A stretch of 64,000 bases of DNA from a bacterium (GTDB lineage Bacteria > JAMCPX01). This document shows positions 60 to 28,356 of the stretch, in pieces (position 1 is the first letter of the stretch; each line of letters opens with the position of its first letter). Both the position numbers and the translations under genes were made by a program. Below the pieces are notes generated by a model. That model did not search any database, was not told the origin of the DNA, and saw only the letters and a program-made list of their open reading frames with translations. Location of the stretch: NCBI GenBank assembly GCA_021792615.1, contig JAJYUJ010000005.1:6075-70074 (forward strand), read 5' to 3'.

Positions 60-620
60 ATGACCACCTATAACCTTTATAAACTTCTCAAAGAGGAGTT
101 GAACAATGGCTCATCCGACCTTGTTACGAGACCGTCCGGACAGGCGATAAGGGAACGGATTGAGAGGGATATTGCAAAGGAGAAGCAGGGTGATCTTATT
201 GCCCTCGACTTTTCGAAAATAGGGATAATTGACTACTCATGTGCCGATGAGATTGTGGCAAAGTTGATTTCAAGGCTTTGGGCTGGTGAATATGGTGATA
301 GATATGTTATTTTGACTGGCCTTAACGAGAACCAGAAGGAAAATATAGAGGTTGCTTTAGAGAGAAAAGACCTTGCTATTATGGCGGAAATGCAGGACAA
401 AGAAAAAATCCTTGTCGGGTCCCTGAACAATTATCTTAAGGAAACGCTCAATCTGATTATTAAAAAGGGCAGGATAACGGCCAAAGAGCTTTCTGATGCG
501 ATGGAACTCGAGTCTAATACGAGCGGGATGAGGCTGTTGAATCTTTACAAGAAAAGACTCGTTAAGAGAATTGATAAAGTAACAGAGAGCGGCAAAGTGT
601 GGATTTATGAGAAGATTTAA
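60..620 (+). CDS. Hypothetical regulator-like protein: N-terminal STAS-like (DUF4325-type) domain fused to a C-terminal winged-helix-like segment
   Basis: ORF of 186 aa. The N-terminal ~100 aa has the pattern of DUF4325/STAS-like proteins (LVTRPSGQAIRERIE...DFSKIGIIDYSCADEIV). The C-terminal ~70 aa (GRITAKELSDAMELESNTSGMRLLNLYKKRLV) looks like a winged HTH. Assignment is by motif recollection only. Confidence 0.45.
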   Translation: MTTYNLYKLLKEELNNGSSDLVTRPSGQAIRERIERDIAKEKQGDLIALDFSKIGIIDYSCADEIVAKLISRLWAGEYGDRYVILTGLNENQKENIEVALERKDLAIMAEMQDKEKILVGSLNNYLKETLNLIIKKGRITAKELSDAMELESNTSGMRLLNLYKKRLVKRIDKVTESGKVWIYEKI

Positions 621-2146: not shown

Positions 2147-4816
2147 ATGCCGGACAATATAAATGAGCAGTTGAACAGCGAACTGATGCCCCTGCTCAAG
2201 AGCATAACCAATACCAATAAAAACCTCGTCGTAAAGAATTACATCATAACGCTGCGTTCCCTTTTGAACGAGTTTCATAAATCAGGCCTTGGCGGTTATG
2301 ATTTTGCGGTCATATTCAGCGACTATCTCGATTTGCTCATGGAAAGGCTGTACGCGCTGTCGGGCACCAATCAGAACGCTGCATACACCCTGGTTGCCAT
2401 AGGCGGATACGGCAGGAATGAATTAAACGCTTACTCGGACATCGATCTCCTTTTTTTGTATCAGGACACGCTCTCGGAAGGTTTTCAGAACAGCATGCTG
2501 TATCCACTGTGGGATACGAAACTCGAGATAGGTCATAGTTCAAGGACCGTAGACGAATGTATAGAAGACGCAAAAAACGATTATACCTTTCTCACCTCAT
2601 TGATGGACCAGAGGTTCATTGCGGGGAACTTCGGCCTGTTCGATTCCCTCCATACGCAGCTGTGCGGCCTGGTAAGGGGATCGCCCCAAATCTTTTTTCA
2701 GGAAAGGGAACAGGAACTTTATGCACGGCGCGCAAAATATTCGACACCGGTTTACACCCTTGAACCGAACATAAAGGAGGGACCCGGCGGGCTCAGGGAC
2801 GTTCATACCATGCTCTGGCTCACAAGACTGTTTACGGATATTCCGGACATTACCGAATTCAAAAAATCGCCGTTTTTCGATTCCGATACGTATGAGCAAT
2901 TTATTCGCAACTACAATATACTGATGAGACTGAGAAACGAGATGCACTTTTTAAGCGGCAGCAAGAATGACCGGCTGACCCTCGAGGTACAAAAACATCT
3001 CTCGACGTTTTCGGGTTATGAAAACGAAGAAGATGTCCTGGGGGTAGAAAAGTTTTTAGGCAATTTTTACGAGACCACGCACCGGATAGCAGAGCTTGCG
3101 GACGATTATATCCGGTACCTCAAAGAAAGGTATATCCTCCCCGGGAGCACGGAAAATACGGAATTCATAGGCGAATACTACATGATAACCCATAAGCAGC
3201 TCATGCTGAAGACCGGGAGTACCGACATCTACGAGAGGAAACCCGGGGAATTGATACATACCTTCCAACTACTCGTGGACCATGATGTAAAACCCGCGAT
3301 TGCACTCAAAAACACCTTAAAAAAGGAGGCATTCCGGCTTCAGGAAGAGGAACGGATAGGCGCGTTATTCCCGTCATTTATGTCCCTGTTTGAGAGCAAG
3401 AACTTAAGTAAAATATTGTTTCTGATAAATGATTATGGCATCCTCGGCATCATTATAAATGAATTCAAAGCAATAGCCAACAGGATACAGTACGACATGT
3501 ATCATATTTATACCGTCGGCATACATTCCATAAAAACCGTGGAAGAGATTGAGAAGATTCGGGATGGGAACAACGATAAATTCCTCAAGTCGCTGTATGA
3601 ACAGGTAAAAAACAGAACCGTGCTTCTGCTTGCCGCGTTCCTGCACGATATCGGCAAGGGACACGGTAAAGACCACGCGAGGAAAGGCAGTGAAATGGCC
3701 TACAACATTGCAATCAGGCTCGGTGTTCCTGAGGCAGATGCCGAGCTCGTATCCTTTCTTGTCAGAAACCATCTGATCCTTTCCGACACAGCCCAGCGAC
3801 GGGACATCAACGACGAGAAATTGATATACGAATTCTCCAAGCTTGTAAAAAGGCGGGAAAATCTCAAGATGCTCTACCTGCTTACCGTTGCGGACCTGCG
3901 CGCAGTATCATCAATCGTCTGGACAGAGTGGAAGGGGGCACTCATCAATGAACTCTATAAAAGGTCCGAAGAAGCGCTTGAGCAGGGTCTTGATATGGCA
4001 AGGCTCACAACGGAGAAGTATCATATCGCAAAAGAGCAGGTAAAAACAGACTTGAAGGGTATTGCCGATAACAGTATTATCGATGAGTTCCTCGACGGGT
4101 TCAAGTCCCGGTACTTCACGACCTATTCACCGCAGGAGATTCGGGAACACTTCGATCTCATAAACCAATTCAAGACGGACGGTATCCTTGCCGTAGCAGG
4201 AACCGTCAATCCGCAGCACGGGTACACGAAGATCAGCGTTTGCACTACGGACAGGCCCGGAATTTTTTCTATAATAGCAGGAGTATTATCGTCAACAGGG
4301 GCAAACATCATGGACGCGAATATCTCCGTGAGAAAAGACGGTATCATCATAGACGTTTTCCGTGTCGAGGATGTGGACAAACTCCATCCCTACCCTGAAT
4401 ACAAATTGCAGAAATTCATCAACGACCTCAAGGAATGCCTGTCCGGAAAGATCGCGGTTGAGTCCCTGCTGTCCGCACGGTTTAAGCCTTCCATACTGAA
4501 AGACAAGGTCATCAACAAACAGCCGACGGAGATCATCGTCAATGACGAGGTTTCCGACATATATACCCTCATTGAGATATATACGCAGGACAGGCAGCGG
4601 CTCCTGTACGATATAACCCGTACTCTCTCAAAATTCGATCTGAATATCGTCGTAGCCAAGATTACGACGAGGGTCGATCAGGTAGCGGATATCTTTTATG
4701 TCGAAAAAATCGGCGGTGGAAAGATCTCCGGTACACGGGACACAGAGACACTGGTTTCAGAATTGCGATCGATTATCGACAAAGAAAACAACGGTCAGCC
4801 TATCGATGGAAATTGA
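2147..4816 (+). CDS. glnD: [Protein-PII] uridylyltransferase / uridylyl-removing enzyme GlnD
   Basis: Nucleotidyltransferase motif GGYGRNELNAYSDIDLLFLY and an HD domain (LLAAFLHDIGKGHG) are followed by two C-terminal ACT-like domains. Length is about 890 aa. The ATG at 2147 is preferred over the GTG at 2132. Confidence 0.85.
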   Translation: MPDNINEQLNSELMPLLKSITNTNKNLVVKNYIITLRSLLNEFHKSGLGGYDFAVIFSDYLDLLMERLYALSGTNQNAAYTLVAIGGYGRNELNAYSDIDLLFLYQDTLSEGFQNSMLYPLWDTKLEIGHSSRTVDECIEDAKNDYTFLTSLMDQRFIAGNFGLFDSLHTQLCGLVRGSPQIFFQEREQELYARRAKYSTPVYTLEPNIKEGPGGLRDVHTMLWLTRLFTDIPDITEFKKSPFFDSDTYEQFIRNYNILMRLRNEMHFLSGSKNDRLTLEVQKHLSTFSGYENEEDVLGVEKFLGNFYETTHRIAELADDYIRYLKERYILPGSTENTEFIGEYYMITHKQLMLKTGSTDIYERKPGELIHTFQLLVDHDVKPAIALKNTLKKEAFRLQEEERIGALFPSFMSLFESKNLSKILFLINDYGILGIIINEFKAIANRIQYDMYHIYTVGIHSIKTVEEIEKIRDGNNDKFLKSLYEQVKNRTVLLLAAFLHDIGKGHGKDHARKGSEMAYNIAIRLGVPEADAELVSFLVRNHLILSDTAQRRDINDEKLIYEFSKLVKRRENLKMLYLLTVADLRAVSSIVWTEWKGALINELYKRSEEALEQGLDMARLTTEKYHIAKEQVKTDLKGIADNSIIDEFLDGFKSRYFTTYSPQEIREHFDLINQFKTDGILAVAGTVNPQHGYTKISVCTTDRPGIFSIIAGVLSSTGANIMDANISVRKDGIIIDVFRVEDVDKLHPYPEYKLQKFINDLKECLSGKIAVESLLSARFKPSILKDKVINKQPTEIIVNDEVSDIYTLIEIYTQDRQRLLYDITRTLSKFDLNIVVAKITTRVDQVADIFYVEKIGGGKISGTRDTETLVSELRSIIDKENNGQPIDGN

Positions 4817-5702
4817 TAACGCTATCGACACCTTCATAAATTATATAGCCTCTGAAAAGGGCTTGTCCAGAAACACCATTTCTTCCTACAGTACGGACCT
4901 CAAGAGATTTTCGGATTTTTTGCACGGCGCAGGCATAACGGATGTTTCCGGCATAACAACGGACAGGATCCTTGTTTTTCTCAAATCCTTGAAAACAAGC
5001 CGGCTGTCCTCATCTTCGGTCGTACGGTATCAGGTGACCATACGGAACTTTTTCAGATTTATGCTCAAAGAAGGAGTTTTGAAAAAAGACCCGGTCCATA
5101 TACTTGAACTCCCGAAAAGGGACAGGAAACTCCCGCAGGTGATGAATGAATCGGAGATCGAATCCCTCCTGAACAGTCCGTCGCTGATACAAGATAAGAA
5201 ACGTCAGTTACGGGACAAGGCCATGTTTGAGGTCATGTACGCAACAGGACTGCGCGTATCCGAGCTCGTTGGCTTGACGCTGAATTCCATCGAAATGACC
5301 GTGGGATTTATAAAGGTGAAAGGCAAAGGCAGCAAAGAGAGGATCGTCCCCATAGGTGACGCTGCAAAAGAAGCGGTTGCCCGCTACCTCGAAGAAGGCC
5401 GGCCGGCCTTCTTACGGCGTACAACCGATGCCCTTTTTTTAACTCAGCAGGGTGAAGCCTTTTCGCGGCAGGGATTCTGGAAGCTCCTGAAAACATATCT
5501 CAAGAAGACAAACATAACAAAGCTTGTTACACCGCATACCCTGCGGCATTCCTTTGCGACACATTTACTTGAACACGGCGCAGATCTCAGGTCTGTTCAA
5601 CTCATGCTCGGACATTCGGACATTTCAACCACGCAGATCTACACGCATATCAATACGGAGATGCTCAAACGCATATACGACAAGTACCACCCCAGGAGCT
5701 GA
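4806..5702 (+). CDS. xerD: Tyrosine site-specific recombinase XerD
   Basis: Classic XerD/XerC motifs are present: ARDKAMFEVMYATGLRVSEL, HTLRHSFATHLLEHGADLRSVQLMLGHSDISTTQIYTH and the catalytic RHRHY set. The start at ATG 4806 overlaps the glnD stop by 11 nt. The upstream in-frame extension in the ORF track is rejected. Confidence 0.85.
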   Translation: MEIDNAIDTFINYIASEKGLSRNTISSYSTDLKRFSDFLHGAGITDVSGITTDRILVFLKSLKTSRLSSSSVVRYQVTIRNFFRFMLKEGVLKKDPVHILELPKRDRKLPQVMNESEIESLLNSPSLIQDKKRQLRDKAMFEVMYATGLRVSELVGLTLNSIEMTVGFIKVKGKGSKERIVPIGDAAKEAVARYLEEGRPAFLRRTTDALFLTQQGEAFSRQGFWKLLKTYLKKTNITKLVTPHTLRHSFATHLLEHGADLRSVQLMLGHSDISTTQIYTHINTEMLKRIYDKYHPRS

Positions 5703-5726: not shown

Positions 5727-5981
5727 CTAATCGTGCTCTTTGAACGCCTTTTCCTGTTCCGGATCGTGTTTTCTGATCCACTCCATCAGCATTGCAGCGT
5801 GCTCTTTTTCCTCGTCCCTGTTGTGGGACAATATTCGCTTGAGACCGGGATCTTTTGTTGCTGCTATTCTCTGCTGGTACCAGTCTATCGCATCAAATTC
5901 CTCCGTCAGTGAAACACGCGCCCTTTCAAGGTCCTTCGATACATCATCGAGATTGTCCCAGTCGTTGTGTGTAGAAGACAT
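5727..5981 (-). CDS. Encapsulated-ferritin-like (EncFtn/Flp family) di-iron ferroxidase-like protein, no recognisable encapsulin-targeting tail
   Basis: The 84-aa sequence EEFDAIDWYQQRIAATKDPGLKRILSHNRDEEKEHAAMLMEWIRKH closely matches the conserved EncFtn core (ELEAVDWYQQR...HNRDEEKEHAAMTLEWLRR, recalled from R. rubrum/H. ochraceum EncFtn). A strong RBS (AGGAGG) lies 10 nt after the upstream ACAD stop. The protein ends right after the ferritin-like helix pair. Confidence 0.65.
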   Translation of the reverse strand: MSSTHNDWDNLDDVSKDLERARVSLTEEFDAIDWYQQRIAATKDPGLKRILSHNRDEEKEHAAMLMEWIRKHDPEQEKAFKEHD

Positions 5982-5990
5982 GGATACCTC

Positions 5991-7229
5991 CTATTTCAAT
6001 TCCTTCCTTGTGTAATCAAGGATAGCCCTTGCCACAACGAGTCTCTGGATCTGTCCGGTACCTTCAAACACGTCGTAGACCTTTGCGTCCCTCATCCATT
6101 TCTCCAGCAGGTGTTTCCGTGAATACCCTTCGGGTCCGTAGAGTTCTATTGCCTTCTGCGTAACTTCATCGACGACCGTACCGGCCTTTGCCTTTGCCAT
6201 GGAGGCTTCTTTAAGATTCGGCAGACTATGATCGAGCATCCATGCCGCCTTCCACGTGAGCAGCCGTGCCGCACTGATCTTTGCCTCCATATCCTCGAGC
6301 ACCGTCTCTATATATCCTCTTTTGTGGAGAGGTTTGCCGTAATTTATTTCAAGGCCGTTCTTTACGACAAAATCCTCGTATACCAAGTCGAACGCGGAAC
6401 GCGCAATGCCGATTGCCATGGCTGCAACCATAGGACGTGTTGCATCGAACGTTTGCATTGCACCTTTGAATCCTTTTTCTTCTTTCTTCTCGCCGCCAAG
6501 GAGGTTGTCCTTGTGAACGCGGCAATCTTCAAGCACGACCTCGGCCGTGTCCGAAGCACGTATCCCGAGTTTGTGCTCGAGCCTGGCCATCTTGAGACCC
6601 GGTGTTCCCTTCTCCACGACGAACGCCTTGATACCCGATCTGCCGAGATCCTTGCCGAGCGTTGCCCAGACAACATACAGGTCGGCCATATCGCCGCCCG
6701 TAACGAATATCTTGGTCCCGTTGAGTATATAATAATCCCCGTCCTTGACTGCCGTTGTAGCAACTGCAGAGGCATCGGAACCAAAACCCGGCTCTGTCAG
6801 TGCCATAGCTCCGTAACTCGGCTTGGGGCCGTTCAGAACCTTCATAAACCGCTTCTTTTGTTCCGGGGTCCCTGCTGCCATGATCGCAGCGCCGCCGAGA
6901 CCGGGCCCCGGAATTCTCAGGGTAAGTCCCGGACACCCCCATGCGATCTCTTCTATTGCAATGGCACCGAGGAGGTTCATTTCCATCTTCGGCCGGTCGT
7001 GCTTTTCTTTATGCTCTGATTTTTCTTCCGAGTCACCGCTTGCATTGGCAGTGGAAAAACTGAATCCCAGTGACCGGAACATCTCATGGGTCTTTTGTAT
7101 GAATTCCGTAGGTTCTACGTGTTCCTCTTCATCGTATTTACGCGCTATCGGCCGCATAACATCGCGTGCATAGTTATGGGTAAATTCCCTTGCCATCTTC
7201 ATTATAGGTGTGAATTCAAAGTCTATCAT
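5991..7229 (-). CDS. Acyl-CoA dehydrogenase family protein (catalytic Glu present, with an acidic/His-rich insertion)
   Basis: ACAD fold motifs are present, including the C-terminal RDAKVYDVFEGTGQIQRLVVAR with the catalytic base in the FEGT box. The start is taken at MIDFEF (7229), which has a good RBS (AAGGAGG). The 5' extension to 7325 in the ORF track overlaps the upstream gene and is rejected. Confidence 0.8.
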   Translation of the reverse strand: MIDFEFTPIMKMAREFTHNYARDVMRPIARKYDEEEHVEPTEFIQKTHEMFRSLGFSFSTANASGDSEEKSEHKEKHDRPKMEMNLLGAIAIEEIAWGCPGLTLRIPGPGLGGAAIMAAGTPEQKKRFMKVLNGPKPSYGAMALTEPGFGSDASAVATTAVKDGDYYILNGTKIFVTGGDMADLYVVWATLGKDLGRSGIKAFVVEKGTPGLKMARLEHKLGIRASDTAEVVLEDCRVHKDNLLGGEKKEEKGFKGAMQTFDATRPMVAAMAIGIARSAFDLVYEDFVVKNGLEINYGKPLHKRGYIETVLEDMEAKISAARLLTWKAAWMLDHSLPNLKEASMAKAKAGTVVDEVTQKAIELYGPEGYSRKHLLEKWMRDAKVYDVFEGTGQIQRLVVARAILDYTRKELK

Positions 7230-7239
7230 GTAAGCCTCC

Positions 7240-8337
7240 TTATACAATCGCCATAAATTCTGATACTGCAAATGACCGTGCATCCCGGTACCACATCTCG
7301 ACCGGATGTTCCCGTACGAAGCCATGGCCGCCGAGGATCTGGGTTGCGTTCCTCGTTATGAACATGGCTGTATCCGCGGCATACCGTTTTCCAAGGGATG
7401 CCTCCTTGTACGCGTCCATACCTTTATCGAGCATCCATGCGGATTTCCATGCCATCAGACGGATCGCATCGATCTCCATTGCCATCTCAGCAAGGGTGAA
7501 TGCTACCGACTGCCGTGAAGCGATCGGTTCTCCGAAAGCAATGCGCTCTTTTGCATAGGCAAGAGCATATTCGTACGCCGCCCTGCACACGCCTGTCGTA
7601 AGCGCTATGGAGGCTGTCCTCGCCCGCGCGAGAAGGTTCGCAAAACCGCCGGAGAGCTTCAACACCTCATTGCGCGCCACCCTTGAACCGTCCAGCGACA
7701 GGGTAAACTGTTTTAAAGCCCTTAATCCCTGGTTTTTTTCTCTTTCCTTGACGGTAAAACCACCTGCAGGTACTATGAAACCGTCGATACCCGCAAGCCC
7801 CTCACCGCTGCCCTTTTTTGCAAATACCAGGGTTGCAAGTGCGGAATCGGCAATCGAGACAAACGCCTTTTCTCCGTTCAGTACAAAATCGTCACCGTCA
7901 TCCGCTGCGGTTGTTTTTAAGGATTCGATATCAAACCGCACGGAAGGTTCGACAAGTGCCGCAGTAAAACCCTGGAATTGGTCCGGCTTGTTCATCGTGA
8001 AATACTTTTTTTTCTGTTCTTCCGTACCATACAGCATCAAGGGTATATTCATCAAAGACGGTGCCAGGATATTCACGGTCATCGAAAGATTGCCATAGGC
8101 GAGTTCTTCGAGTACGATAACGCTGTCCAGCGCGGAAAGCTGCCCACCTGCCCCGCCGTACGCCTCGGGGATGTATCCGGTCGTTAATCCCAGCTCATGT
8201 CCCTGTTTTATAATATCCGCCGGTATCTCACCCGATTCATCTGCCGGCCTGTCTTGCTTTCGCATGATTGTTAAAGCAAAATCCCTGCACGTATCCCTGA
8301 GCAGGGCTTGTTCTTCGCTTAATTCAAAAGAAACCAT
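7240..8337 (-). CDS. Acyl-CoA dehydrogenase family protein (short, divergent C-terminus)
   Basis: ACAD N-terminal and middle-domain motifs are present (EEQ..., GYIPEAYGG, ...WYRDARSF). The protein terminates ...AVSEFMAIV exactly where the (Y/F)EGT helix would continue. It lies 10 nt upstream of the next ACAD. Confidence 0.75.
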   Translation of the reverse strand: MVSFELSEEQALLRDTCRDFALTIMRKQDRPADESGEIPADIIKQGHELGLTTGYIPEAYGGAGGQLSALDSVIVLEELAYGNLSMTVNILAPSLMNIPLMLYGTEEQKKKYFTMNKPDQFQGFTAALVEPSVRFDIESLKTTAADDGDDFVLNGEKAFVSIADSALATLVFAKKGSGEGLAGIDGFIVPAGGFTVKEREKNQGLRALKQFTLSLDGSRVARNEVLKLSGGFANLLARARTASIALTTGVCRAAYEYALAYAKERIAFGEPIASRQSVAFTLAEMAMEIDAIRLMAWKSAWMLDKGMDAYKEASLGKRYAADTAMFITRNATQILGGHGFVREHPVEMWYRDARSFAVSEFMAIV

Positions 8338-8534
8338 AGTGCCTCCTTTGTGCTATTATGAGATGTATAAATATCTTTTTGATTAGGATGTCAATAAACT
8401 TTAATATATAAAATGAACAAAACTGGATAGCCGCTTTCGTTGGTATAACGAAGAATCAAACGCAGGTAAAAGCGAAAAGGTACTTTTCGGTAAACCGATA
8501 GGTGACTTAACTATTATAAAAGCAAATTTTCTTA

Positions 8535-9356
8535 TTATAAATTTTTGGTCAGGCCGAGCACATCGCCCATGGTGTAGACGCCGGGCTTTTTCCCCGCGAT
8601 CCATTGAGCCGCAAGCAATGCGCCCTGAGCAAAGTTCTCCCTGCTCGTTGCCCTGTGCGTTATCTCGAGCCGTTCGCCGGTACCGATAAACATGACAGTA
8701 TGCTCTCCCGCAATATCTCCTCCGCGCAGGGTCTGAATACCTATCTCTCCCCTCGGGCGGGTGCCTATTTGTCCATGGCGTTCATACCGAGCCACATCCG
8801 CAAGCTGTTTGCTGCGGGCATGGGCAATGATATCGGCCAATTTCAGGGCAGTGCCGCTCGGTGCGTCGATTTTATTCTTGTGGTGTGCCTCTACAATCTC
8901 GGCATCAAAACTGTCATCTATCGTTCCTGCCGCGAGTTCCACAAGCTTAAAAAGCAGGTTTACCAGTACGCTCATATTGGGGGACTGGACGATGGCGGTT
9001 TCTTTTCCTGCCTGATGGATCATTTCCGTCTCTTCTTTCGAAATCCCGGTTGTCCCGATGACCAGGGATATTTTTTTCTTCCTCGCATACCCGAGGATTG
9101 CCATGGTCGAAGCAGGTATCGAGAAATCTATAATACAATCAACGTGCGCCGTAATACTTGCGGGATCGTCGGTAACCATGACCCCGGAATTTTTACCCTG
9201 AATGAGCAGGCCGATATCAACGCCGATGGACGAATGGCCCTTCCGCTCTATTCCTCCAACGATACGAAACAACGGGTTCTGGGACAGAAGCCGTGCTATC
9301 TGCAGGCCCATCCTCCCCATAACGCCGTTGACGGCAACGGCAACCGGATCAGCCAT
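8535..9356 (-). CDS. dapB: 4-hydroxy-tetrahydrodipicolinate reductase
   Basis: N-terminal Rossmann motif VAVNGVMGRMG and a conserved DapB C-terminal domain. It sits in an operon with dapA, dapF and lysA. Confidence 0.85.
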   Translation of the reverse strand: MADPVAVAVNGVMGRMGLQIARLLSQNPLFRIVGGIERKGHSSIGVDIGLLIQGKNSGVMVTDDPASITAHVDCIIDFSIPASTMAILGYARKKKISLVIGTTGISKEETEMIHQAGKETAIVQSPNMSVLVNLLFKLVELAAGTIDDSFDAEIVEAHHKNKIDAPSGTALKLADIIAHARSKQLADVARYERHGQIGTRPRGEIGIQTLRGGDIAGEHTVMFIGTGERLEITHRATSRENFAQGALLAAQWIAGKKPGVYTMGDVLGLTKNL

Positions 9357-14157: not shown

Positions 14158-15288
14158 CTACTGATTACTATATTCGCCATACTCGCAGCCGGCATTTTTT
14201 ATTGCAATATGATCTATCAGTATCGTTTGGTTTCTCTTCTTTTTTAAAAGCTTTATTTCTCCCTGCCCCGTTCCACCGTTCCAGAGTTTGTTGTGCAATT
14301 TTTTCCCGTTTGGTGCCTCGTAGTTTATCAGGAGCATTTCATCTTTGCGGCACTCCAGCGTCAACTCCATGACTGATTGCCTGTTGGCAGCATGCACCTG
14401 CCATGTATTCATTGATGTGCCTTCCTTGAAGCTAAACGAGATACGTGTGCCCGTCCAAAATTTTGAAAAGTTATAATCATACATTTTTCCCTCGTAATAC
14501 ATCCCGCCGAGAAGCTTGCCCTGCAGCCCGATGCCGAATACTCTGGGCGTTCCCCCGCCCATCTCGACAGCAGAATTCGACAACACTTTCCCTGTGATAA
14601 GGCTTCTCATGTTACAGCTGCTGATCCACAACCAAGGCGAGGTAAAATCCCTTCCCCAATTTTTGTCTGCATAACCGTATGATTTTTCTGCAATGATGTC
14701 ATACACCTCTCCATCAAACGTGACTTCTCCGCTGTACTCCGTCTTGATACCTTCGGCATGCCAGAACATTTCAAAAGCATTGATGGTACGGAAAAACCCC
14801 GAGGCACCGTAGCCGACATTGTAAGCAATTTTCTTCTGAATGGACAAGTCCCATTGCATACTGCCTGCATCACACATATATTCGGGATGCTCTTGAGCTT
14901 CGTGTGCGGATACTTCACAGGAGCCTTCCATGTGGGTTTCTGTCAGCGCACAACTGCCGATTTTTATGTTCAGTTCATGGGAAGGACAGGAGAAATCACT
15001 GATAGGATAAAAATTGTGGATTTGCTTTGCATTCTTTCCCCAGGCACCAACCTTGATCAGGGCGTACGAGGGTTTGACGTCCTTTGCACGGTTTTCCGGA
15101 AGCTGTCCCAGAACCACACGCGTACCACCGAGAGCAGGATTGATGACAAAATATTCTATAAAGAATGTCTTTTCCTCACCGGTTTTTCTATTATACCCCG
15201 TAAAGTTATGCCACCACCAGTCATACCCTTGCCGGGAAAGAGCACCCTTTAACATGAAAAGGTCCCGGCTCACATCACGTTTGTTCAT
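14158..15288 (-). CDS. Tocopherol-cyclase-family protein (PF14249-like), function unknown in this context
   Basis: YGYADKNWGRDFTSPWLWISSCN matches the tocopherol cyclase signature YAEKNWGHSFPSRWFWLQAN (recalled from cyanobacterial Slr1737), and GYDWWWHNFTGY matches the N-terminal GYHWQG region. A GGAGG RBS precedes the start at 15288. Confidence 0.6.
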   Translation of the reverse strand: MNKRDVSRDLFMLKGALSRQGYDWWWHNFTGYNRKTGEEKTFFIEYFVINPALGGTRVVLGQLPENRAKDVKPSYALIKVGAWGKNAKQIHNFYPISDFSCPSHELNIKIGSCALTETHMEGSCEVSAHEAQEHPEYMCDAGSMQWDLSIQKKIAYNVGYGASGFFRTINAFEMFWHAEGIKTEYSGEVTFDGEVYDIIAEKSYGYADKNWGRDFTSPWLWISSCNMRSLITGKVLSNSAVEMGGGTPRVFGIGLQGKLLGGMYYEGKMYDYNFSKFWTGTRISFSFKEGTSMNTWQVHAANRQSVMELTLECRKDEMLLINYEAPNGKKLHNKLWNGGTGQGEIKLLKKKRNQTILIDHIAIKNAGCEYGEYSNQ

Positions 15289-15332
15289 TGCGGTCACCTC
15301 CTTATCATATACGAACAATGACGGTGAATTTG

Positions 15333-18463: not shown

Positions 18464-18949
18464 CTATTTTGATTTTGAGTTGGAGGCCTTCTGCCTGCTG
18501 CGTGCTTTCATTACTTCCATCATATTGTTATAGAGAAAAACTCCCTGTTTATTGCCGTCTGCCTGCGAACCTTTCAGTTTTTCCATGCTGCTGCTGGGCA
18601 CATAACAATCGTACAGTTTCCAGCCTGCAGTGTCTCCGTCAATGCGTGCATCATAGCAGTTCCAATCTTTCACTATCCCGTAATACCATGAAACATCGGG
18701 CATGGTGTTGAGACAGCTTCCCATCACGGCCCACTGGTCAACATCACTCATCAGGGAAGTGCGCTGACAATCCCGTACATCCGCGCTGACCTGGGGATTG
18801 TCCGGTATTTTATAGTAAAAAGCATGGAGTGCCGGCATACACCCCGACACTATCGAAAATATACCCGCACCGAACAGAAGAGCGAATAAACTTTTCACCC
18901 TTTTACGAATCCCTGCACCTTTTTGAATGAATAAGCCTCTCGATTCCAT
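18464..18949 (-). CDS. Hypothetical lipoprotein
   Basis: A signal peptide with lipobox IVSGC is present. The 161-aa sequence has no recognised domain and carries several Cys and Trp/Tyr-rich motifs. Confidence 0.45.
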   Translation of the reverse strand: MESRGLFIQKGAGIRKRVKSLFALLFGAGIFSIVSGCMPALHAFYYKIPDNPQVSADVRDCQRTSLMSDVDQWAVMGSCLNTMPDVSWYYGIVKDWNCYDARIDGDTAGWKLYDCYVPSSSMEKLKGSQADGNKQGVFLYNNMMEVMKARSRQKASNSKSK

Positions 18950-19073: not shown

Positions 19074-20780
19074 TCATACACCAGCACCCTGCATCTTTTC
19101 CCGGTCGATGGTATCGGGCGTAACCCCTTCTTTTGATAAAACACCTTTGATGACCCGCTGGGTTTCTGTCTTCGGCAGTTCCTGCATAATGCGAAAATAA
19201 CGCGGAATGGCAAACAGGGCGAGGTGTTCTTTCAAAAAGGAGCTCACTTCTTTGACATCCAGCTTCCCGCCTTCAACCGGTACCACGGCAGCCATAACAT
19301 CATCCTCGCCAAGCTCCGAAGGTACGCCGTAAACCGCGCATTCGAGGATGCCCGGGTACTGCAGAATTGCATGTTCAACCTCATAGGCGGAAATGTTCTC
19401 CCCCCTGCGTCTCAGAGATTCCGTTTTCCTGCCGATAAAATAGAGATATCCTTTTTTGTCCGCATGGACGAGGTCTCCGGTATGCAGCCATCCGTCCCTG
19501 AGTTTCGACGAGGTCGCCTTTTCGTCCTTGTAGTATACCACGTCCTTATTGGCTTTTTTGCCGGTGAAGAAAATCAGCTCGCCGGACTGTCCCTGCCGTA
19601 CGTCCTTGTTCTCATCGTCAACGATCCGGTACTTTGCGCCGAGCGGCTTGCCCATACTGCCGGCAGGCGCCTGCCCGTAGTTCATGACGATGATACCGCC
19701 GCCGTCCACCGCACCGTAACCCTCGATCAGCTGAACGCCGAACCGTTTCTCGAACGGCCCCCACATGTCGGACGGGCACGCTGCAGAGAGCACGTGTTTC
19801 ACCGAGTGATTGCGATCGCCGGCTTGCTGCGGCTGTTTCATCAAAATCGGGATGATACCGCCAATAGTGTTGAATACCGTCGCTTTGGTTTCGCGTACCT
19901 CGTTCCAGAACCTGCTCGCACTGAATTTCTCCCTGAGCGCTACCTGTGCTCCGACGTTCATGGCTGCAGTAACGGTGAGCAGGATCGCGTTCGCATGGAA
20001 CAGGGGCAGGCAGGTGAAATACACGTCGTCCCTGGTGAGGAGCACGCGGTTGATAAGCTTCATCTTCCGGACGTTCGTACGTCCGTAAAAGGTCGGTACG
20101 CCTTTCGGAAGGCCGGTCGTGCCGGACGTGTAGAGAAGCATGCACCGATCGCCTTCCCGCGCGCTCACCCCCGGCTTCGCGGTGCTGATGCCGGGACCGT
20201 ACGCCTCGTCCAGCACTTGCCGGGACAGAGAGGATGCCGGGACCTGTTTGTCGGCACCGTTCGCGGTGATAACGAGCGGAGGCGAAGGAAGATCGCTTTT
20301 TATCTTTTCGTAGTACTGCAGGAGTTCCTGATCGATGCACGCATAACGCGCATCCGAGTGCTTGAATATATGCGCGAGCTGGGTCGAGCGCAGGGCTATG
20401 TTCACCGGCACCGCACACATACCGAGCTTTTGCGCACCGAAGAATACGTCGAGCCATCGCGGTGAATTCTTCATCACGATCGCGATCGCCTGACCGGGTT
20501 CTGCACCGAGTCCCCTCAAATAGTTTGCGACCCTGTTTGCGTTCCCGTCCATCTCCGCATAGGTATATGACCTGCCATAGAAGTCCAGAAACAGCCTGTC
20601 TCCGTGCCGGGCCGCGCACTCTTCTAATAGCCCTGCGTGAGAAACATCGTGCGCTATGGTCAGCTTGCCCCGCGACCGGCTCAGGCGGATGGTATCCCCC
20701 AGCGTGCCGCGCCTGAATTCTTCCCATCCCAGCACAACGGCCCCGGCGAATAATTTCCTCAGAAAGGTAGACGTCTTCAT
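19074..20780 (-). CDS. AMP-dependent acyl-CoA synthetase/ligase
   Basis: AMP-binding motifs are present: LLYTSGTTGLPKGV, the YGxxE region (IEGYGAVDGG) and the C-terminal GWLHTGDLVHADKKGYLYFIGRKTESLRRRGENIS. The true start is MKTSTF at 20780. The ORF-track start at 21131 runs through the 3' end of the thiolase gene in another frame, which is a GC-rich read-through artefact. Confidence 0.75.
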   Translation of the reverse strand: MKTSTFLRKLFAGAVVLGWEEFRRGTLGDTIRLSRSRGKLTIAHDVSHAGLLEECAARHGDRLFLDFYGRSYTYAEMDGNANRVANYLRGLGAEPGQAIAIVMKNSPRWLDVFFGAQKLGMCAVPVNIALRSTQLAHIFKHSDARYACIDQELLQYYEKIKSDLPSPPLVITANGADKQVPASSLSRQVLDEAYGPGISTAKPGVSAREGDRCMLLYTSGTTGLPKGVPTFYGRTNVRKMKLINRVLLTRDDVYFTCLPLFHANAILLTVTAAMNVGAQVALREKFSASRFWNEVRETKATVFNTIGGIIPILMKQPQQAGDRNHSVKHVLSAACPSDMWGPFEKRFGVQLIEGYGAVDGGGIIVMNYGQAPAGSMGKPLGAKYRIVDDENKDVRQGQSGELIFFTGKKANKDVVYYKDEKATSSKLRDGWLHTGDLVHADKKGYLYFIGRKTESLRRRGENISAYEVEHAILQYPGILECAVYGVPSELGEDDVMAAVVPVEGGKLDVKEVSSFLKEHLALFAIPRYFRIMQELPKTETQRVIKGVLSKEGVTPDTIDREKMQGAGV

Positions 20781-20799
20781 GTGCGATACTCCGGTCTGC

Positions 20800-22194
20800 C
20801 TACTTTTCCAGGATATGGATACACAGTGCGGCCTCTTCGTTGCCGAGTGCTCCGCCGCCGTTCTCTGCCAGCGCAATGTGCGCGTCCCGGACCTGCCGTT
20901 TCCCCGCCTCGCCCCTGAGTTGCGTAACAAGCTCGTTGATCTGCGCAAGGCCCGACGCACCGATGGGATGCCCGCGTGAGAGCAGCCCCCCGGAGGTGTT
21001 GATGGGTTTTTTCCCGCCGACCCTGGTCTCTCCCCGCTCCGCGTATACGCCGCCTTCTCCCTCGGGGAAAAATCCGAGTGCCTCGGTCTGGTGCAGCTCG
21101 CCGTACGCGGTCGCATCGTGCACTTCGGCAAGGTCTATGTCTTTCGGACCCAGCCCCGACTTCTCATACGCAATCCTGCCTGCCCGTTCCCCGATGTCCG
21201 GCTCGTCCTGGGTTCGCGTCCGTCCGGATGCAAGCACCGATGCCCTGACCTTCACCGCCCGCGCCAGCATGCCCAGCCGTTTCACGACGTCTCCGCTGGC
21301 GAGAATTGCAGAAGCGGCACCATCGCCGATCGGTGCGCACATCGCCCTCGTGAGGGGATAAGAGACCATGCGGTCGTTGAGGACATCGTCAACGGACACG
21401 TCGAAGGTATACTGGGCATTGGGATTCATGGTCGAGTGCCAGTGGTTCTTCGATGCTATGACGGCGAGCTGCCGCGGCGTGCTGCCGTACTTCTTCATAT
21501 GTGCCCGTGCAGCAAATGCGTAGACATCCATGAACGGCGAGTGATCGGCACCCGCTCCCTTGCCGGTGCCATTGAGGCCCGTGAGCAATTTTTTTACATT
21601 TCCGTAGCCCATGCTCTCGCCGAGAATGACATACGTTGCAAACATGTCCCAGTAGTTCTGCAGTTTTCCGCGCATACCGGCCTTGTTCTTTTTCGTCCGC
21701 GGCCTCGTGACGCCGGCCGGTACGTTCTTCGGTACTTCGAGCATCTCCGGTGCTGTCTTCTTAATATATTCGATCTGATCAAAGATACCGCCCACATCGA
21801 GCCCGCTCATAAACCCGGCGAACATCAGGTACTTATTCATCGCGTAAACCTTTTCCACGCCGATCGCCAGGGACACGTCCGTCATCCCGGACGCGACGTC
21901 CTTCCATGCGCTGTGAAAGGCCGTTGACCCTCCGGCGCATGCGTTTTCGACATTGGTTATGGGTATACCCTCTATGCCGAGGGGCCGCAGGGCGACCTGA
22001 CCGCGGATACAGTGCTGGAAGTTCCTCATCCCCCAGCCAGAGTTGGAAAACCATGCGGACTGGATGTCCTTTTTTTCGATACCCGCATCCTTGAATACCC
22101 CCTCGATAGTCCAGGCCGCAAGTTCCTTGATGCTGTTATCAAGGTACCTGCCGAACTTAATGGTGTGCGAACCGATTACATAAACGTCTCTCAT
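20800..22194 (-). CDS. Thiolase-family protein (SCP-x / nonspecific lipid-transfer-type thiolase) with an internal insertion
   Basis: A thiolase N-terminal catalytic Cys region (NVENACAGGSTAF) and C-terminal His/Cys motifs (NTSGGLLSRGHPIGASG) are present. There is a ~90-aa insertion relative to compact SCP2-thiolases. Confidence 0.75.
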   Translation of the reverse strand: MRDVYVIGSHTIKFGRYLDNSIKELAAWTIEGVFKDAGIEKKDIQSAWFSNSGWGMRNFQHCIRGQVALRPLGIEGIPITNVENACAGGSTAFHSAWKDVASGMTDVSLAIGVEKVYAMNKYLMFAGFMSGLDVGGIFDQIEYIKKTAPEMLEVPKNVPAGVTRPRTKKNKAGMRGKLQNYWDMFATYVILGESMGYGNVKKLLTGLNGTGKGAGADHSPFMDVYAFAARAHMKKYGSTPRQLAVIASKNHWHSTMNPNAQYTFDVSVDDVLNDRMVSYPLTRAMCAPIGDGAASAILASGDVVKRLGMLARAVKVRASVLASGRTRTQDEPDIGERAGRIAYEKSGLGPKDIDLAEVHDATAYGELHQTEALGFFPEGEGGVYAERGETRVGGKKPINTSGGLLSRGHPIGASGLAQINELVTQLRGEAGKRQVRDAHIALAENGGGALGNEEAALCIHILEK

Positions 22195-22206
22195 CCTAAA
22201 ATCCTC

Positions 22207-22530
22207 CTAAAATTTGCGCGGTGGTTCGGCACTGCCGCGGTCGAGATAATAGAAATGTTTCGTGAATTTAATGAATTCTTTGATCTCTATTGAATGCTGC
22301 GGACATATTGCAACACAATCCCCGCATGATATGCAGAACGGCAATTCTTCGACCATGCGCGCTTTTTTATTCACGACTTCGAGGGAATGGGCCGGACACG
22401 GTTTGATACAGTAACCGCATCCGTCACAGGTGTTCTGATCGATAACAACAACCCCGAAGGTAACATCCCTGCCGAGCTTATTGAAGCTCTCGATGTATAT
22501 TCTTTTCTTTATCGTTAAGTGTTCAGACAT
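22207..22530 (-). CDS. 2x[4Fe-4S] ferredoxin
   Basis: Two CxxCxxCxxxCP motifs are present (CDGCGYCIKPCP, CISCGDCVAICP). The start is taken at MSEHL (22530). The ORF track gives a longer start. Confidence 0.7.
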   Translation of the reverse strand: MSEHLTIKKRIYIESFNKLGRDVTFGVVVIDQNTCDGCGYCIKPCPAHSLEVVNKKARMVEELPFCISCGDCVAICPQHSIEIKEFIKFTKHFYYLDRGSAEPPRKF

Positions 22531-22540
22531 AGTATGCCTC

Positions 22541-23287
22541 TCAGTAAACGACTTTAAAGGTTCCATTCTCGCCGAACCAGTCGATCGCCTGCGTTTCCCG
22601 GCTGACATTCCCGTCGGGAACCCCGCGCGGATAGCCTATCGCAATAGACGTAACAAGCTTGTACGGATAGCGGATACCAAGACGTTTCCTCCACTTCGCG
22701 TACATCTTCAGCGGCGTCATAAAACTGACCCAGCATGTCCCCAGACCGTAGCTGTGTGCGGTCAGTACCATGTTCTCTCCTGCAATACCCGTGTCGAGTG
22801 ACGGGTCACCCGGCGAACGCTTGTCCGCAAGCAGAATGAGCACGGTCGGCGCACCATGCCATAATCCAAGTTTTCCATCGGCGATAAGCCGCATGGCTCC
22901 GAACGGTACCGGATGGAACATATTCGGCAGAAAGCGCATCAGGAATTTTGCAACCCATTCCTTATGCTTTGTCCATGAACCGAGGTACCATGCAAACCGC
23001 ATTACCAGTTTCAACTTTTTTATCACATCATCTTCCATTTCTTTGATCATCTTCTGGTCCTGCACCACGATAAACTTCCACGGCTGTCCGTTGCCGGCGG
23101 ATGGTGCAAACCTGCCTGCTTCTATAATCCTCCGGACGATGTATTCCGGAACTTGTTTGTTTTTCTCATAAAACCGGACGCTCCTGCGGCTGTAAATAAC
23201 GTTTTCGACGGAATTAAACGCATCACCAGGCTCCGGGAAGCGGGTACCCGTCTCAGGTGCAATTCGTGTATCATTCAGGTGTATCAT
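22541..23287 (-). CDS. Nitroreductase-family flavoprotein (candidate enone reductase)
   Basis: Nitroreductase signatures RRSVRFY and APSAGNGQPWKFIVV are present. The start is taken at MIHLND (23287), which has a GGAGAA RBS. Length is 248 aa. Confidence 0.7.
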   Translation of the reverse strand: MIHLNDTRIAPETGTRFPEPGDAFNSVENVIYSRRSVRFYEKNKQVPEYIVRRIIEAGRFAPSAGNGQPWKFIVVQDQKMIKEMEDDVIKKLKLVMRFAWYLGSWTKHKEWVAKFLMRFLPNMFHPVPFGAMRLIADGKLGLWHGAPTVLILLADKRSPGDPSLDTGIAGENMVLTAHSYGLGTCWVSFMTPLKMYAKWRKRLGIRYPYKLVTSIAIGYPRGVPDGNVSRETQAIDWFGENGTFKVVY

Positions 23288-23327
23288 AGGTATTCTCCTT
23301 GCGGCACAAATGTATTCTTTGTGATCT

Positions 23328-24455
23328 TTATTGACCTTTCGCCATCGCACTTACCAGTCCGAGCTTACGCAGGGGGAACAGCCCCAGCAGCGCTTGTACC
23401 TGCTTGGCGTCCCGGAAACGCTTCTCCTGACCATAGTCTTTCATGTAACCGTTACCACCCAGGATCTGTATGCCGTCCGTAGTCAGTTTGCACGCCAGCT
23501 CGGACAGGTGCAGTGCAGCGGCACGGGCTGAGAGCCCCCACTGCGGGTCCTGCTGATCCACAGCCATCGCAGCCCCGGAAACTACCATGTCCGCTATCCC
23601 GGCCTGTACGGCCATGTCACCGAGCAACATGCGCAGTGCCGACCAGTTGATAATCTCCCGGCCGCCCTGAAAGCGCTCCTGACTGTAGGAAAGGGCCTCC
23701 TGAAATGCACCCTTCATGATACCGCACTGGATGGCGGCAACTGCCGCGTGCATTCGGTCGGAAGCATGATCGAAACAACGCGCTCCGTCGCCTTCCTTGC
23801 CTACCGGTCTTCCTTCAACCCCTGCAAGTGTAAGATCCACGCCGGGACATGCATGCAGACCCAGACTGAATATGGGCTCGCTCTTCGTAAGTCCCTTTCC
23901 TCCCTGGTCGATGAGAAAGAACGTATACCCGTCCTGACCTTTGATGCGTGCCGGTACCAGAGCATGACCTGCCATACCGCCAAGAACAACGTATTCGATC
24001 GTGCCGCTGAGACTGTAGGTACCACCGGTCCTGACGGCATCGAGACGGGTTTGGGTCTCGCCGGGGTTGCAGAAAGCCGGGTAAGCGATCAAGGTGGAGC
24101 GGGCATCGGTTGCCTGTCCCATGATGTCTTTCAGGGTATCTTTACCTCCGGCCGCAAGCATAATCTCCTGGGCAAGGACATTGGTAAAAATAATACCGCT
24201 CAAGCTGGCGTCCACCGCACTGATCCGGTCGAGGATGACGCACAGGGCACCGATGCCCTGCCCGGCACCGCTGCACTCCTCCGGTACGGTTATGCCCAGC
24301 AGCCCGGCTTCGTAAGCCCTGGCCACCACGGGATCGAAAAAAGGTCCGAAGGGGTAGCTGTCGTTGACCTTCCGGTTAGCCGTGAGTTCTCTGACTGCGA
24401 AATTGTGTGCCAGGTCTTCAAAAGGTTTTAATTCGGATTTTATCGTCGTTAACAT
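23328..24455 (-). CDS. Acyl-CoA dehydrogenase-like protein lacking the catalytic glutamate (probable non-catalytic beta subunit)
   Basis: An ACAD fold is present, but the C-terminal (Y/F)EGT box reads RDAKQVQALLG, so there is no Glu. It lies immediately downstream of a full ACAD. Confidence 0.7.
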   Translation of the reverse strand: MLTTIKSELKPFEDLAHNFAVRELTANRKVNDSYPFGPFFDPVVARAYEAGLLGITVPEECSGAGQGIGALCVILDRISAVDASLSGIIFTNVLAQEIMLAAGGKDTLKDIMGQATDARSTLIAYPAFCNPGETQTRLDAVRTGGTYSLSGTIEYVVLGGMAGHALVPARIKGQDGYTFFLIDQGGKGLTKSEPIFSLGLHACPGVDLTLAGVEGRPVGKEGDGARCFDHASDRMHAAVAAIQCGIMKGAFQEALSYSQERFQGGREIINWSALRMLLGDMAVQAGIADMVVSGAAMAVDQQDPQWGLSARAAALHLSELACKLTTDGIQILGGNGYMKDYGQEKRFRDAKQVQALLGLFPLRKLGLVSAMAKGQ

Positions 24456-24467
24456 GGTTACCTCCGC

Positions 24468-25976: not shown

Positions 25977-25992
25977 AACTCCTCCTTTATCC

Positions 25993-26763
25993 TCAATCGT
26001 CGATGAGGTTCCTCGGCGGAAACAGGACCATCTCATTGACCGGTATATACTGGAACACAAGCGGTTTTTTGCTCAAACCTATACTGTTCAGTTCCATGGC
26101 TATTTTGTGGTCATTGCCGATATCGAGCACCGCCGCATTCCTGTCCATGGTCTGCTTGAATTCGATGGGATTTGTATAGATGTTCGCGCAAAGGGGTACG
26201 CCGTCTTTCACGGAATAAGTCTTGAACCTGAGTGTCTTACCCTGTGAAGTGCTTTGTTTTTTGCCCCGGAGTGAAAGGATCTTTTTGCCGTTCTCGGAAA
26301 GCGTACATTCGAGATACTCCTTTTCCCTCTTGAAGGCTATGTCCGCAATGAATTTTGGATAGCCGTAAAGCTCCACACCGGCATATCGGGCTATCTCCGT
26401 TGTAACAGGCAGGTGCCAGACATATGCATGGAAGCAGTGCTTGCCCATATCCGATAGTATCGTAATGCCCGGCACAGGCTTTTTACCGAAACCGATTATA
26501 ATGGAGATGCTGAACTCATTGTACGGATCGATGTCCGTTTTACGGTACTCGAACGCCGAGAATCCGACAAGACACCTTCCGGGGAATACCTCTGCAGGAT
26601 GCATATCCGGATGCGGCAGGTATTTCTTCACCTTTTTTGTCGAGGCTGTGAATATTGCCGTCATGGCGGTGTTGTCGTAATAAAATACCGGGATCGTGCC
26701 TTTAAACCCCGATTCGTTCTGAACCTCCCATTGAACAATACCCTTGAACAGTTCTCCTTTCAT
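25993..26763 (-). CDS. Acetoacetate-decarboxylase-family protein (candidate double-bond isomerase, CLA-DC-like)
   Basis: ELYGYPKFIADIAFK aligns with the ADC active-site segment ELSAYPKKLGYPKLFVD (Schiff-base Lys). At about 256 aa, the length matches ADC-family proteins. Confidence 0.65.
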   Translation of the reverse strand: MKGELFKGIVQWEVQNESGFKGTIPVFYYDNTAMTAIFTASTKKVKKYLPHPDMHPAEVFPGRCLVGFSAFEYRKTDIDPYNEFSISIIIGFGKKPVPGITILSDMGKHCFHAYVWHLPVTTEIARYAGVELYGYPKFIADIAFKREKEYLECTLSENGKKILSLRGKKQSTSQGKTLRFKTYSVKDGVPLCANIYTNPIEFKQTMDRNAAVLDIGNDHKIAMELNSIGLSKKPLVFQYIPVNEMVLFPPRNLIDD

Positions 26764-26773
26764 ATGTTCCTCC

Positions 26774-28329: not shown

Positions 28330-28356
28330 ATCGATCCTCTCGGAAACGCATCGAAC

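Follow-up and report, generated by a model that had tools for sequence, protein, structure and literature searches.

A tail-less, shell-less EncFtn-like protein encoded by the third gene of a lineage-specific acyl-CoA dehydrogenase operon

EncFtn-like proteins that occur without an encapsulin shell have been recognized since 2016, and a crystal structure of one dates from 2009. He et al. (2016) set such proteins apart as the "Non-EncFtn" group, related to EncFtn but without an encapsulin (PMC5012862), and a 2024 review uses the name s-FLP, gives the structure 3K6C as an example, and describes the corresponding protein, NE0167, as decameric in the crystal (PMC11202242). Here, we describe a member of this class encoded in a stretch of 64,000 nucleotides from an uncultured bacterium (assembly GCA_021792615.1, contig JAJYUJ010000005.1, positions 6,075 to 70,074; hereafter, the window). 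The protein, 84 aa in length, is the product of the last of three closely spaced genes, the first two of which encode acyl-CoA dehydrogenases (ACADs), termed ACAD-A and ACAD-B (Table 1). Short, shell-less relatives of the protein are already known and common, and novelty is limited to the lineage-specific ACAD-A/ACAD-B/s-FLP operon; a literature search for EncFtn together with acyl-CoA dehydrogenase, or for "orphan" EncFtn, found no papers.

The translation of the small gene, taken from the six-frame list of open reading frames (ORFs), is MSSTHNDWDNLDDVSKDLERARVSLTEEFDAIDWYQQRIAATKDPGLKRILSHNRDEEKEHAAMLMEWIRKHDPEQEKAFKEHD, and it contains the motifs DWYQQR, HNRDEEKEHAAM, and EWIRK. Its match to the Pfam family EncFtn-like (PF22277) spans profile positions 2-80 of 85 and scores 110.2 bits (E = 4.2e-32), where the cutoff is 27. 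The best PDB match by sequence is NE0167 (3K6C; E = 2e-23, 85.5 bits, 57% identity), and the EncFtn of R. rubrum (5DA5) is matched without gaps over 74 residues (E = 1.5e-20, 76.4 bits); 3K6C ranks above 5DA5 both by sequence and by Foldseek E-value, by a modest margin. An AlphaFold (AF2) model built on 21 homologues (pLDDT 88.5) consists of a short N-terminal helix (residues 4-9), two long antiparallel helices (13-41 and 45-72), and a short C-terminal helix (74-83), and superposition of this model with Foldseek gives TM-scores of 0.81 to 3K6C and 0.85 to 5DA5.

The ungapped alignment allows the metal ligands to be placed, using the numbering of R. rubrum EncFtn (PMC5012862), which is offset by 4 from that of the 84-aa protein. 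The predicted di-iron site comprises E28, E58, and H61 (with Y35), corresponding to E32, E62, and H65 (with Y39) in R. rubrum; the predicted entry site comprises E27/D30 (R. rubrum E31/E34), and the predicted outer site H53/E57/E60 (R. rubrum H57/E61/E64). Every mapped ligand except position 30 is invariant across 21 diverse homologues. The original prediction, made from the DNA letters alone, had assigned the protein to the EncFtn family and had proposed a profile search against the Pfam EncFtn and ferritin-like families as a check; that search returned EncFtn-like and no different ferritin-like family above cutoff, and the sequence and fold matches to 3K6C and 5DA5 bear the assignment out. 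In each feature that could be compared, the protein agrees with the EncFtn-like fold family and with the s-FLP/Non-EncFtn class, and we regard its identity as an s-FLP as almost certain.

Other identities for this gene were considered. Among the ferritin-like families, Rubrerythrin (21.8 bits), COQ7 (20.7 bits), Ferritin (at most 22 bits), and DUF2383 all score below their Pfam cutoffs. A chance ORF or pseudogene is ruled out by the profile score, by the exact length, which is conserved across domains of life, and by a dN/dS of ~0.05. The weak, sub-threshold matches to Rubrerythrin and COQ7 are what could be cited for a protein of one of those types, or for a truncated remnant of an EncFtn that once bore a targeting peptide; these scores compare with 110 bits for EncFtn-like, however, and the terminus is kept along with the length, the ribosome-binding site is strong, and the gene evolves under the constraint just mentioned, which leaves this explanation with next to no credibility.

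Two of the features that define a cargo EncFtn are a targeting peptide and an adjacent shell gene. The 84-aa protein terminates in AFKEHD, directly after the helix of residues 74-83, and is without a GSL- or IGSL-type motif. The NCBIfam model for the cargo protein (TIGR04535) is matched only over profile positions 2-79 of 114 and with 99.4 bits, under its cutoff of 125; the domain is present, and both the linker and the targeting peptide that would follow it at the C-terminus are absent. For the shell, a hidden Markov model (HMM) derived from five encapsulin shells of confirmed identity matched none of the six-frame ORFs of at least 50 aa in the window at an E-value limit of 10, tblastn of the window with one confirmed shell gave chance matches only (E > 2), and Pfam scans of most of the remaining large genes of the window found housekeeping and lipid-metabolism genes only, with no shell. 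Both defining features are absent in the window, as had been read from the sequence at the outset, and of the two alternatives then offered, a free, non-encapsulated EncFtn-type ferroxidase or a cargo protein whose shell is encoded elsewhere, the former is the better supported. That the protein is not encapsulated is, in our judgment, very probable.

A protein search with the 84-aa sequence yielded 1071 homologues. The best 120, drawn from bacteria and numerous archaea, are nearly all 83-84 aa long, and the 84-aa length and the F.EHD end recur in almost every one of them. When species-representative genomes were scanned, at least 594 loci emerged, of which the best 80 (designated by L numbers below) were analyzed, with neighboring genes annotated by crude ORF calling and Pfam spot checks. 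The protein is short and the locus shell-less in 75 of these 80, and a shell gene is adjacent in five. In four of the five, the C-terminus is 32-47 residues longer than the 84-aa end, and three of these four carry a GSLG/IGSL-type motif (GSLGLGG, SLGIGSLRG, and GLTIGGL); all four are followed directly by a Linocin_M18 shell gene, as is the gene of an Anaeromyxobacter locus (L055) in which the extension is only 15 residues. The identity of the shells is supported by a Pfam match of E = 1e-76 for the one that was scanned, and the five-shell HMM finds every one of them at E < 1e-112. The same HMM found no shell gene in the other 75 loci, and a GSLG-type motif occurs in none of those 75. Since shell genes were recovered where long tails occur, the search was able to detect them. 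Short, shell-less EncFtn-like genes are thus the majority among close relatives of the 84-aa protein, so that its "orphan" state, initially presented as exceptional, is no anomaly and belongs to a class that had already been described. The protein is not an encapsulin system that lost its shell; it is a member of this known class.

Two C-terminal classes can be distinguished among the short proteins. In 20 loci, the protein ends like that of the window, with F.EHD immediately before the stop (one has one extra residue); these are mostly from DPANN, Hadarchaeota, and Thermococci, with a few bacteria. About 55 loci, mostly from Proteobacteria, are NE0167-like, with 8-17 extra residues and typically a DYLFTxKPIAH[DE] end. 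Both classes share a conserved terminus of histidine and acidic residues, F.EHD in the 84-aa form and PIAH[DE] in the 95-aa form (in the window, positions 5727-5738 encode KEHD). Judged from the sequences, conservation of this degree hints at an additional metal site or a role in docking, neither of which is described in the literature.

The strikingly conserved terminus also bears on whether the s-FLP could still be an encapsulin cargo, with its shell encoded elsewhere and its contact made in a non-canonical way, for example through the C-terminal EHD: such conservation suggests a function, and the 2024 review considers that s-FLPs could in principle be accommodated by a shell, a binding sequence of undefined type being conceivable (PMC11202242). 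The distribution of tails argues otherwise, as every tail of 32-47 residues comes with an adjacent shell gene, whereas GSLG-type motifs are missing from all shell-less loci and the 84-aa protein itself has neither a GSL- nor an IGSL-type motif. Furthermore, the 84-aa type is frequent among DPANN archaea, one of these being a Micrarchaeota with a chromosome of 1.2 Mb (L017), and, as a weaker point, part of a catalogue of encapsulin systems (PMC8346489) contains zero mentions of N. europaea. We consider a cargo role unlikely.

The three genes of the window are separated by very short junctions. Between ACAD-A and ACAD-B the sequence reads TAA-GGAGG-CTTAC-ATG, a gap of 10 nt, and between ACAD-B and the s-FLP gene it reads TAG-GAGGT-ATCC-ATG, a gap of 9 nt. 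The tight operonic coupling of the small gene to two ACAD genes, noted when the locus was first read, is confirmed by these gaps and by the GGAGG that stands right after the stops; of the two spacings given at that time as 10 nt, the first is exact and the second is 9 nt. The ORF containing ACAD-B extends over 5991-7325 on the minus strand, and its start is placed at the ATG at 7229, matching the gene call in the source metagenome-assembled genome (MAG). The layout of stop, GGAGG, and ATG in front of the s-FLP gene recurs in L007 and L010, with GGAGC in L016. As had also been recognized, the next gene is a convergent xerD, which scores above the TIGR02225 cutoff and whose stop is 24 nt from that of the s-FLP gene. 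Upstream, a promoter-like match (TTTATA-17-TATAAT) at 8541-8513 extends 7 nt into the coding end of dapB, and a terminator-like hairpin lies at 8489-8473 in the spacer between dapB and the cassette, both by consensus only; this region is probably the start of the three-gene transcript. Between the three cassette genes, a search for terminators and promoters gave consensus-level matches only, promoters being about as frequent as chance would predict.

Linkage of the s-FLP to the ACADs was examined by using both ACADs as BLAST queries against the ORFs of 95 loci. The order ACAD-A, ACAD-B, s-FLP was found only in the clade of the window (L001-L006, L007, L010, and L016), where the s-FLPs of the more distant members are 81% (L007), 77% (L016), and 74% (L010) identical to the window protein. 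The cassette is kept in four species-level genomes (L001, L007, L010, and L016) with differing flanks: upstream, dapB or an insertion sequence (IS) element in the window strains, a CbiA-like gene in L007, and a large phosphoesterase gene in L010; downstream, xerD in the window, ruvX in L007, and a GNA1162-like gene in L010, the downstream ORF of L016 matching the ruvX of L007 in size and position. In comparisons between species, the s-FLP gene shows a proportion of synonymous differences (pS) of 0.57-1.0, which is saturated, and a proportion of nonsynonymous differences (pN) of 0.05-0.16, with dN/dS of ~0.05 where computable, which shows that purifying selection on it is strong. Because the junctions have been kept while synonymous sites became saturated and the flanks changed, the cassette is an old and selected unit. 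Each partner has ~11-13 sequence clusters at 74% identity or more, followed by a sharp gap, below which the closest s-FLP, from a locus with glutaredoxin and thioredoxin-reductase genes, has 69% identity and the closest ACAD-A 51% or less.

A general association of ACADs with s-FLPs was considered and rejected, as among the 95 loci adjacent ACADs occur in the window clade only; one further locus (L048) has a single, unrelated ACAD 5 kb from the s-FLP, on the other strand. A single lineage of uncultured bacteria, relatives of which are deposited as "Deltaproteobacteria bacterium", accounts for all occurrences of the cassette, and the linkage, which had been called unusual, proves to be restricted to that clade and conserved within it.

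The spacer upstream of the cassette varies even within the species of the window. Strains L002-L006 carry an IS element (an 81-aa ORF and a 308-aa rve transposase) between dapB and the cassette, and in L002 genes for RHS/YD-repeat toxins are also found there. This spacer (window positions ~8338-8534) is an insertion hot spot, and the side of the cassette toward xerD and glnD is constant.

Both of the dehydrogenases carry all three Pfam ACAD domains, and they differ in how complete they are. The PDB alignment of ACAD-A with 1UKW stops at residue 357 of 379, and in the family alignment ACAD-A ends ~22 residues before ACAD-B and normal ACADs, so that the last helix is missing. At the nucleotide site, where the canonical motif is TEPxxGSD, ACAD-A has the degenerate VEPSVRFD and ACAD-B has TEPGFGSD; ACAD-B also keeps VFEGTGQIQRL with the catalytic Glu. 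These differences make ACAD-A a probable non-catalytic partner of ACAD-B, and the two would probably form a heteromeric acyl-CoA dehydrogenase in which the truncated subunit has the degenerate site and ACAD-B is catalytic. Heteromeric ACADs of the alpha2beta2 type are known, for example the ChsE4-ChsE5 and other FadE pairs of M. tuberculosis, and the cassette may be likened to them in having adjacent, coupled genes with one complete site and one that is degenerate in a shortened chain. The best PDB matches of the cassette ACADs are homotetrameric short- and medium-chain ACADs, and the likeness to ChsE4-ChsE5 and the FadE pairs is one of organization, with no close relationship shown. In the literature searched, no ferritin-like third gene is reported with known ACAD pairs.

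Pairs of this kind are also widespread without an s-FLP. In other phyla, short ACAD-A relatives of 364-369 aa accompany an ACAD-B of ~400 aa with no ferritin-like gene; examples are a Binatia genome and a MAG whose pair lies next to glycyl-radical enzymes. An insert of ~25 residues rich in Lys and Glu (SLGFSFSTANASGDSEEKSEHKEKHDRPKMEMN) is present in the N-terminal domain of the ACAD-B of the cassette clade (in the window, residues ~52-85; positions ~6975-7075), and by alignment it is absent or much shorter in the pairs without an s-FLP.

The window has a second ACAD pair, encoded on the minus strand at 23328-24455 (375 aa) and 24468-26060, within a same-strand cluster at 19074-29976 that also includes genes for an MCRA-family hydratase, a TetR regulator, an NAD epimerase/3beta-HSD-like protein, an acetoacetate-decarboxylase-like protein, a nitroreductase, a thiolase-like protein, and an AMP-ligase. 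This pair and the one beside the s-FLP are distant relatives only, and the larger ACAD of the former has a long insert in the C-terminal domain.

Among the other family members, genes for oxidant defense recur beside s-FLPs. In a Thermococci MAG (L019), Pfam identifies a desulfoferrodoxin/superoxide reductase upstream and a rubrerythrin downstream, and in L020 rubrerythrin-like genes lie on both sides. L013 has a thioredoxin-reductase-like gene (by Pfam) with a glutaredoxin gene beside it, and in Marinobacter (L043) the neighbor is a flavoprotein disulfide reductase of 521 aa that includes a thioredoxin domain (also by Pfam); it reads as AhpF from its sequence and has relatives in L080 and L083. 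In five loci from Proteobacteria, rubrerythrin and DUF3501 genes occur near the s-FLP; a universal stress protein (Usp) gene adjoins it in L027, L039, and L081, and a gene named from sequence as indolepyruvate-oxidoreductase-like is near it in L027, L039, L042, and L081. A single dominant neighbor family was sought by all-against-all clustering of genes within 4 kb and none was found, the largest clusters being spurious ORFs that overlap the s-FLP gene.

The rubrerythrin-like gene just downstream of the 84-aa s-FLP gene in L020, an uncultured archaeon, deserves separate mention. It encodes a protein of 194 aa (6308-6892, plus strand), the second half of which has a weak Pfam match to EncFtn-like (E = 5e-6). 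He et al. (2016) proposed that ferritins originated by duplication (PMC5012862), and the 194-aa protein, judged by this match, may be a four-helix relative standing beside the two-helix form and so bear on that origin.

By analogy with solved homologues, two chains of the window protein would pair, each contributing E28, E58, and H61 (with Y35) to a di-iron ferroxidase center, and five such dimers would form a ring-shaped decamer. This ring would work in the cytosol, outside any encapsulin, and would oxidize Fe(II) using O2 or H2O2. Without a shell, EncFtn (Flp) rings cannot store iron (PMC5012862; PMC8346489), and for this reason removal of oxidant and Fe(II), i.e., protection against stress, is likelier than iron storage. 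The protein is, on this analogy, most likely a free cytosolic ferroxidase or oxidant scavenger. In the window clade, its gene would have been recruited as the third cistron behind the genes of the probable heteromeric ACAD, conceivably because an oxidant and iron scavenger would thereby be co-expressed with an autoxidizable flavoenzyme. The suggestion made with the original prediction, that a di-iron protein beside flavoenzymes could deal with O2 or H2O2 from oxidase side reactions of the ACADs in an anaerobe, would be in keeping with this placement, and its one line of indirect support is the occurrence of oxidative-stress genes next to other family members. The explanation as a whole, a stand-alone, tail-less ferroxidase or scavenger with the EncFtn fold encoded by the third cistron of an ACAD operon, is the one we favor with moderate confidence, and a protective role tied specifically to the ACADs is put forward as a tentative suggestion.

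Several considerations weigh against this explanation. To our knowledge, the s-FLP class has no member with a demonstrated function or biochemical characterization, that the host is an anaerobe is an assumption, and the negative search for a shell gene covers the 64-kb window and ~20 kb of the 195-kb contig DAHVIG010000002.1 (GCA_027322025.1) rather than a whole genome. The neighbor contexts of s-FLPs are heterogeneous, with no family present in more than ~6 of the 80 loci, and the occurrence of the ACAD pair without an s-FLP in other phyla, together with ~75 other s-FLP loci without a nearby ACAD, makes neutral accretion possible. Encapsulation of s-FLPs is itself left undecided by the 2024 review (PMC11202242).

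Neutral accretion would mean that a mobile stress gene landed behind an ACAD operon in the ancestor of the clade and stayed there by accident. Besides the heterogeneity of s-FLP contexts, this has in its favor the restriction of the cassette to one narrow clade and the 60-70% identity of 84-aa proteins from bacteria to those from archaea, which suggests horizontal spread. Against it, the flanks were reshuffled in four species and the cassette with its 8-10-nt junctions outlasted the saturation of synonymous sites, a pattern that usually reflects selection for co-expression. A purely accidental arrangement is accordingly rather unlikely, though a better candidate than a cargo role.

The same persistence could be taken further, to an s-FLP that is a dedicated partner of the ACADs, either as a di-iron, O2-reducing electron sink that replaces the electron transfer flavoprotein (ETF) or as a module of an acyl-CoA oxygenase or desaturase. 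The translationally coupled junctions remain intact in the four species under changing flanks and saturated synonymous sites, the matching numbers of clusters above the identity gap are consistent with one-to-one co-inheritance of the partners, no ETF domain was found among the window genes scanned with Pfam, and the clade-specific charged insert of ACAD-B could be a docking site. Such a partnership is nonetheless difficult to reconcile with the presence of the same ACAD pair, but no s-FLP, in Binatia and one more uncultured lineage, and probably in others, or with the s-FLP itself, which differs little from archaeal s-FLPs that have the same ligands (60-69% identity) and unrelated neighbors. 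In addition, the di-iron site of EncFtn is a solvent-exposed ferroxidase site and not a substrate pocket, and the literature search found no precedent. We hold a dedicated partnership in general to be improbable, and more doubtful still its specific form, in which an EncFtn ring serves the heteromeric ACAD by taking electrons from the flavin or scavenging reduced oxygen there. If true, it would constitute a self-contained, ETF-independent system for acyl-CoA oxidation and the first physiological role for the Non-EncFtn/s-FLP class.

For the free ferroxidase or scavenger that we favor, the ACAD-ACAD-s-FLP operon offers a concrete system in which to seek a partner or phenotype of an s-FLP, and the survey adds handles on the class at large: the ratio of 75 short to 5 shelled loci, the two C-terminal classes, and the recurrent oxidative-stress neighbors.

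Table 1. Features of the ACAD/s-FLP cassette and its flanks (positions in the window).
Feature	Position	Strand	Basis and remarks
84-aa tail-less EncFtn-like protein (s-FLP/Non-EncFtn class)	5727..5981	-	PF22277, PDB matches, AF2 model, dN/dS
ACAD-B, 412 aa	5991..7229	-	Pfam ACAD N/M/C domains; 1UKW, E = 2e-75
ACAD-A, 365 aa	7240..8337	-	Pfam ACAD domains, 1UKW alignment, family alignment
Shine-Dalgarno AGGAGG	5987..5992	-	Overlaps ACAD-B TAG stop, 5 nt before s-FLP ATG
Shine-Dalgarno GGAGG	7235..7239	-	Directly after ACAD-A TAA stop, 5 nt before ACAD-B ATG; kept in L007, L010, L016
xerD, convergent, 298 aa in source MAG (L001)	4806..5702	+	TIGR02225, 370 bits (cutoff 329.6), E = 6e-111
Region upstream of cassette	8338..8541	-	197-nt spacer after dapB and sigma70-like promoter match, consensus scan (weak)

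Elsewhere in the window, two ORFs have no Pfam match at E <= 1e-4: one of 186 aa (60-620, plus strand), which recurs in strain L003, again next to the sugar-transferase gene, and one of 161 aa (18464-18949, minus strand). A 386-aa protein encoded at 14158-15318 on the minus strand matches the tocopherol-cyclase family (PF14249, E = 1.5e-12), and its gene sits between that of an fn3-domain lipoprotein-like protein and that of argininosuccinate lyase; this family is unusual for a bacterium deposited as deltaproteobacterial.

Compared with known systems, the window protein is closest to NE0167 of Nitrosomonas europaea, and each consists of a single EncFtn-like domain without a targeting peptide. 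The two differ in that NE0167 has 95 aa, an end of the DYLFTxKPIAH type, and a genomic context other than the ACAD one, while the window protein has the 84-aa F.EHD form common to many Archaea. The EncFtn proteins of R. rubrum (Rru_A0973, 5DA5) and Haliangium ochraceum (5N5F) have an extension of ~30-45 aa, a GSLK-type peptide, and an adjacent Linocin_M18 shell gene, whereas the window protein has neither tail nor shell gene. With R. rubrum EncFtn it nevertheless shares the fold (TM-score 0.85) and the ligands of the ferroxidase site and of both secondary sites, except for the replacement of E34 by Asp, and by analogy the chemistry that the two are likely to have in common is the oxidation of Fe(II) at a di-iron site in the dimer interface.

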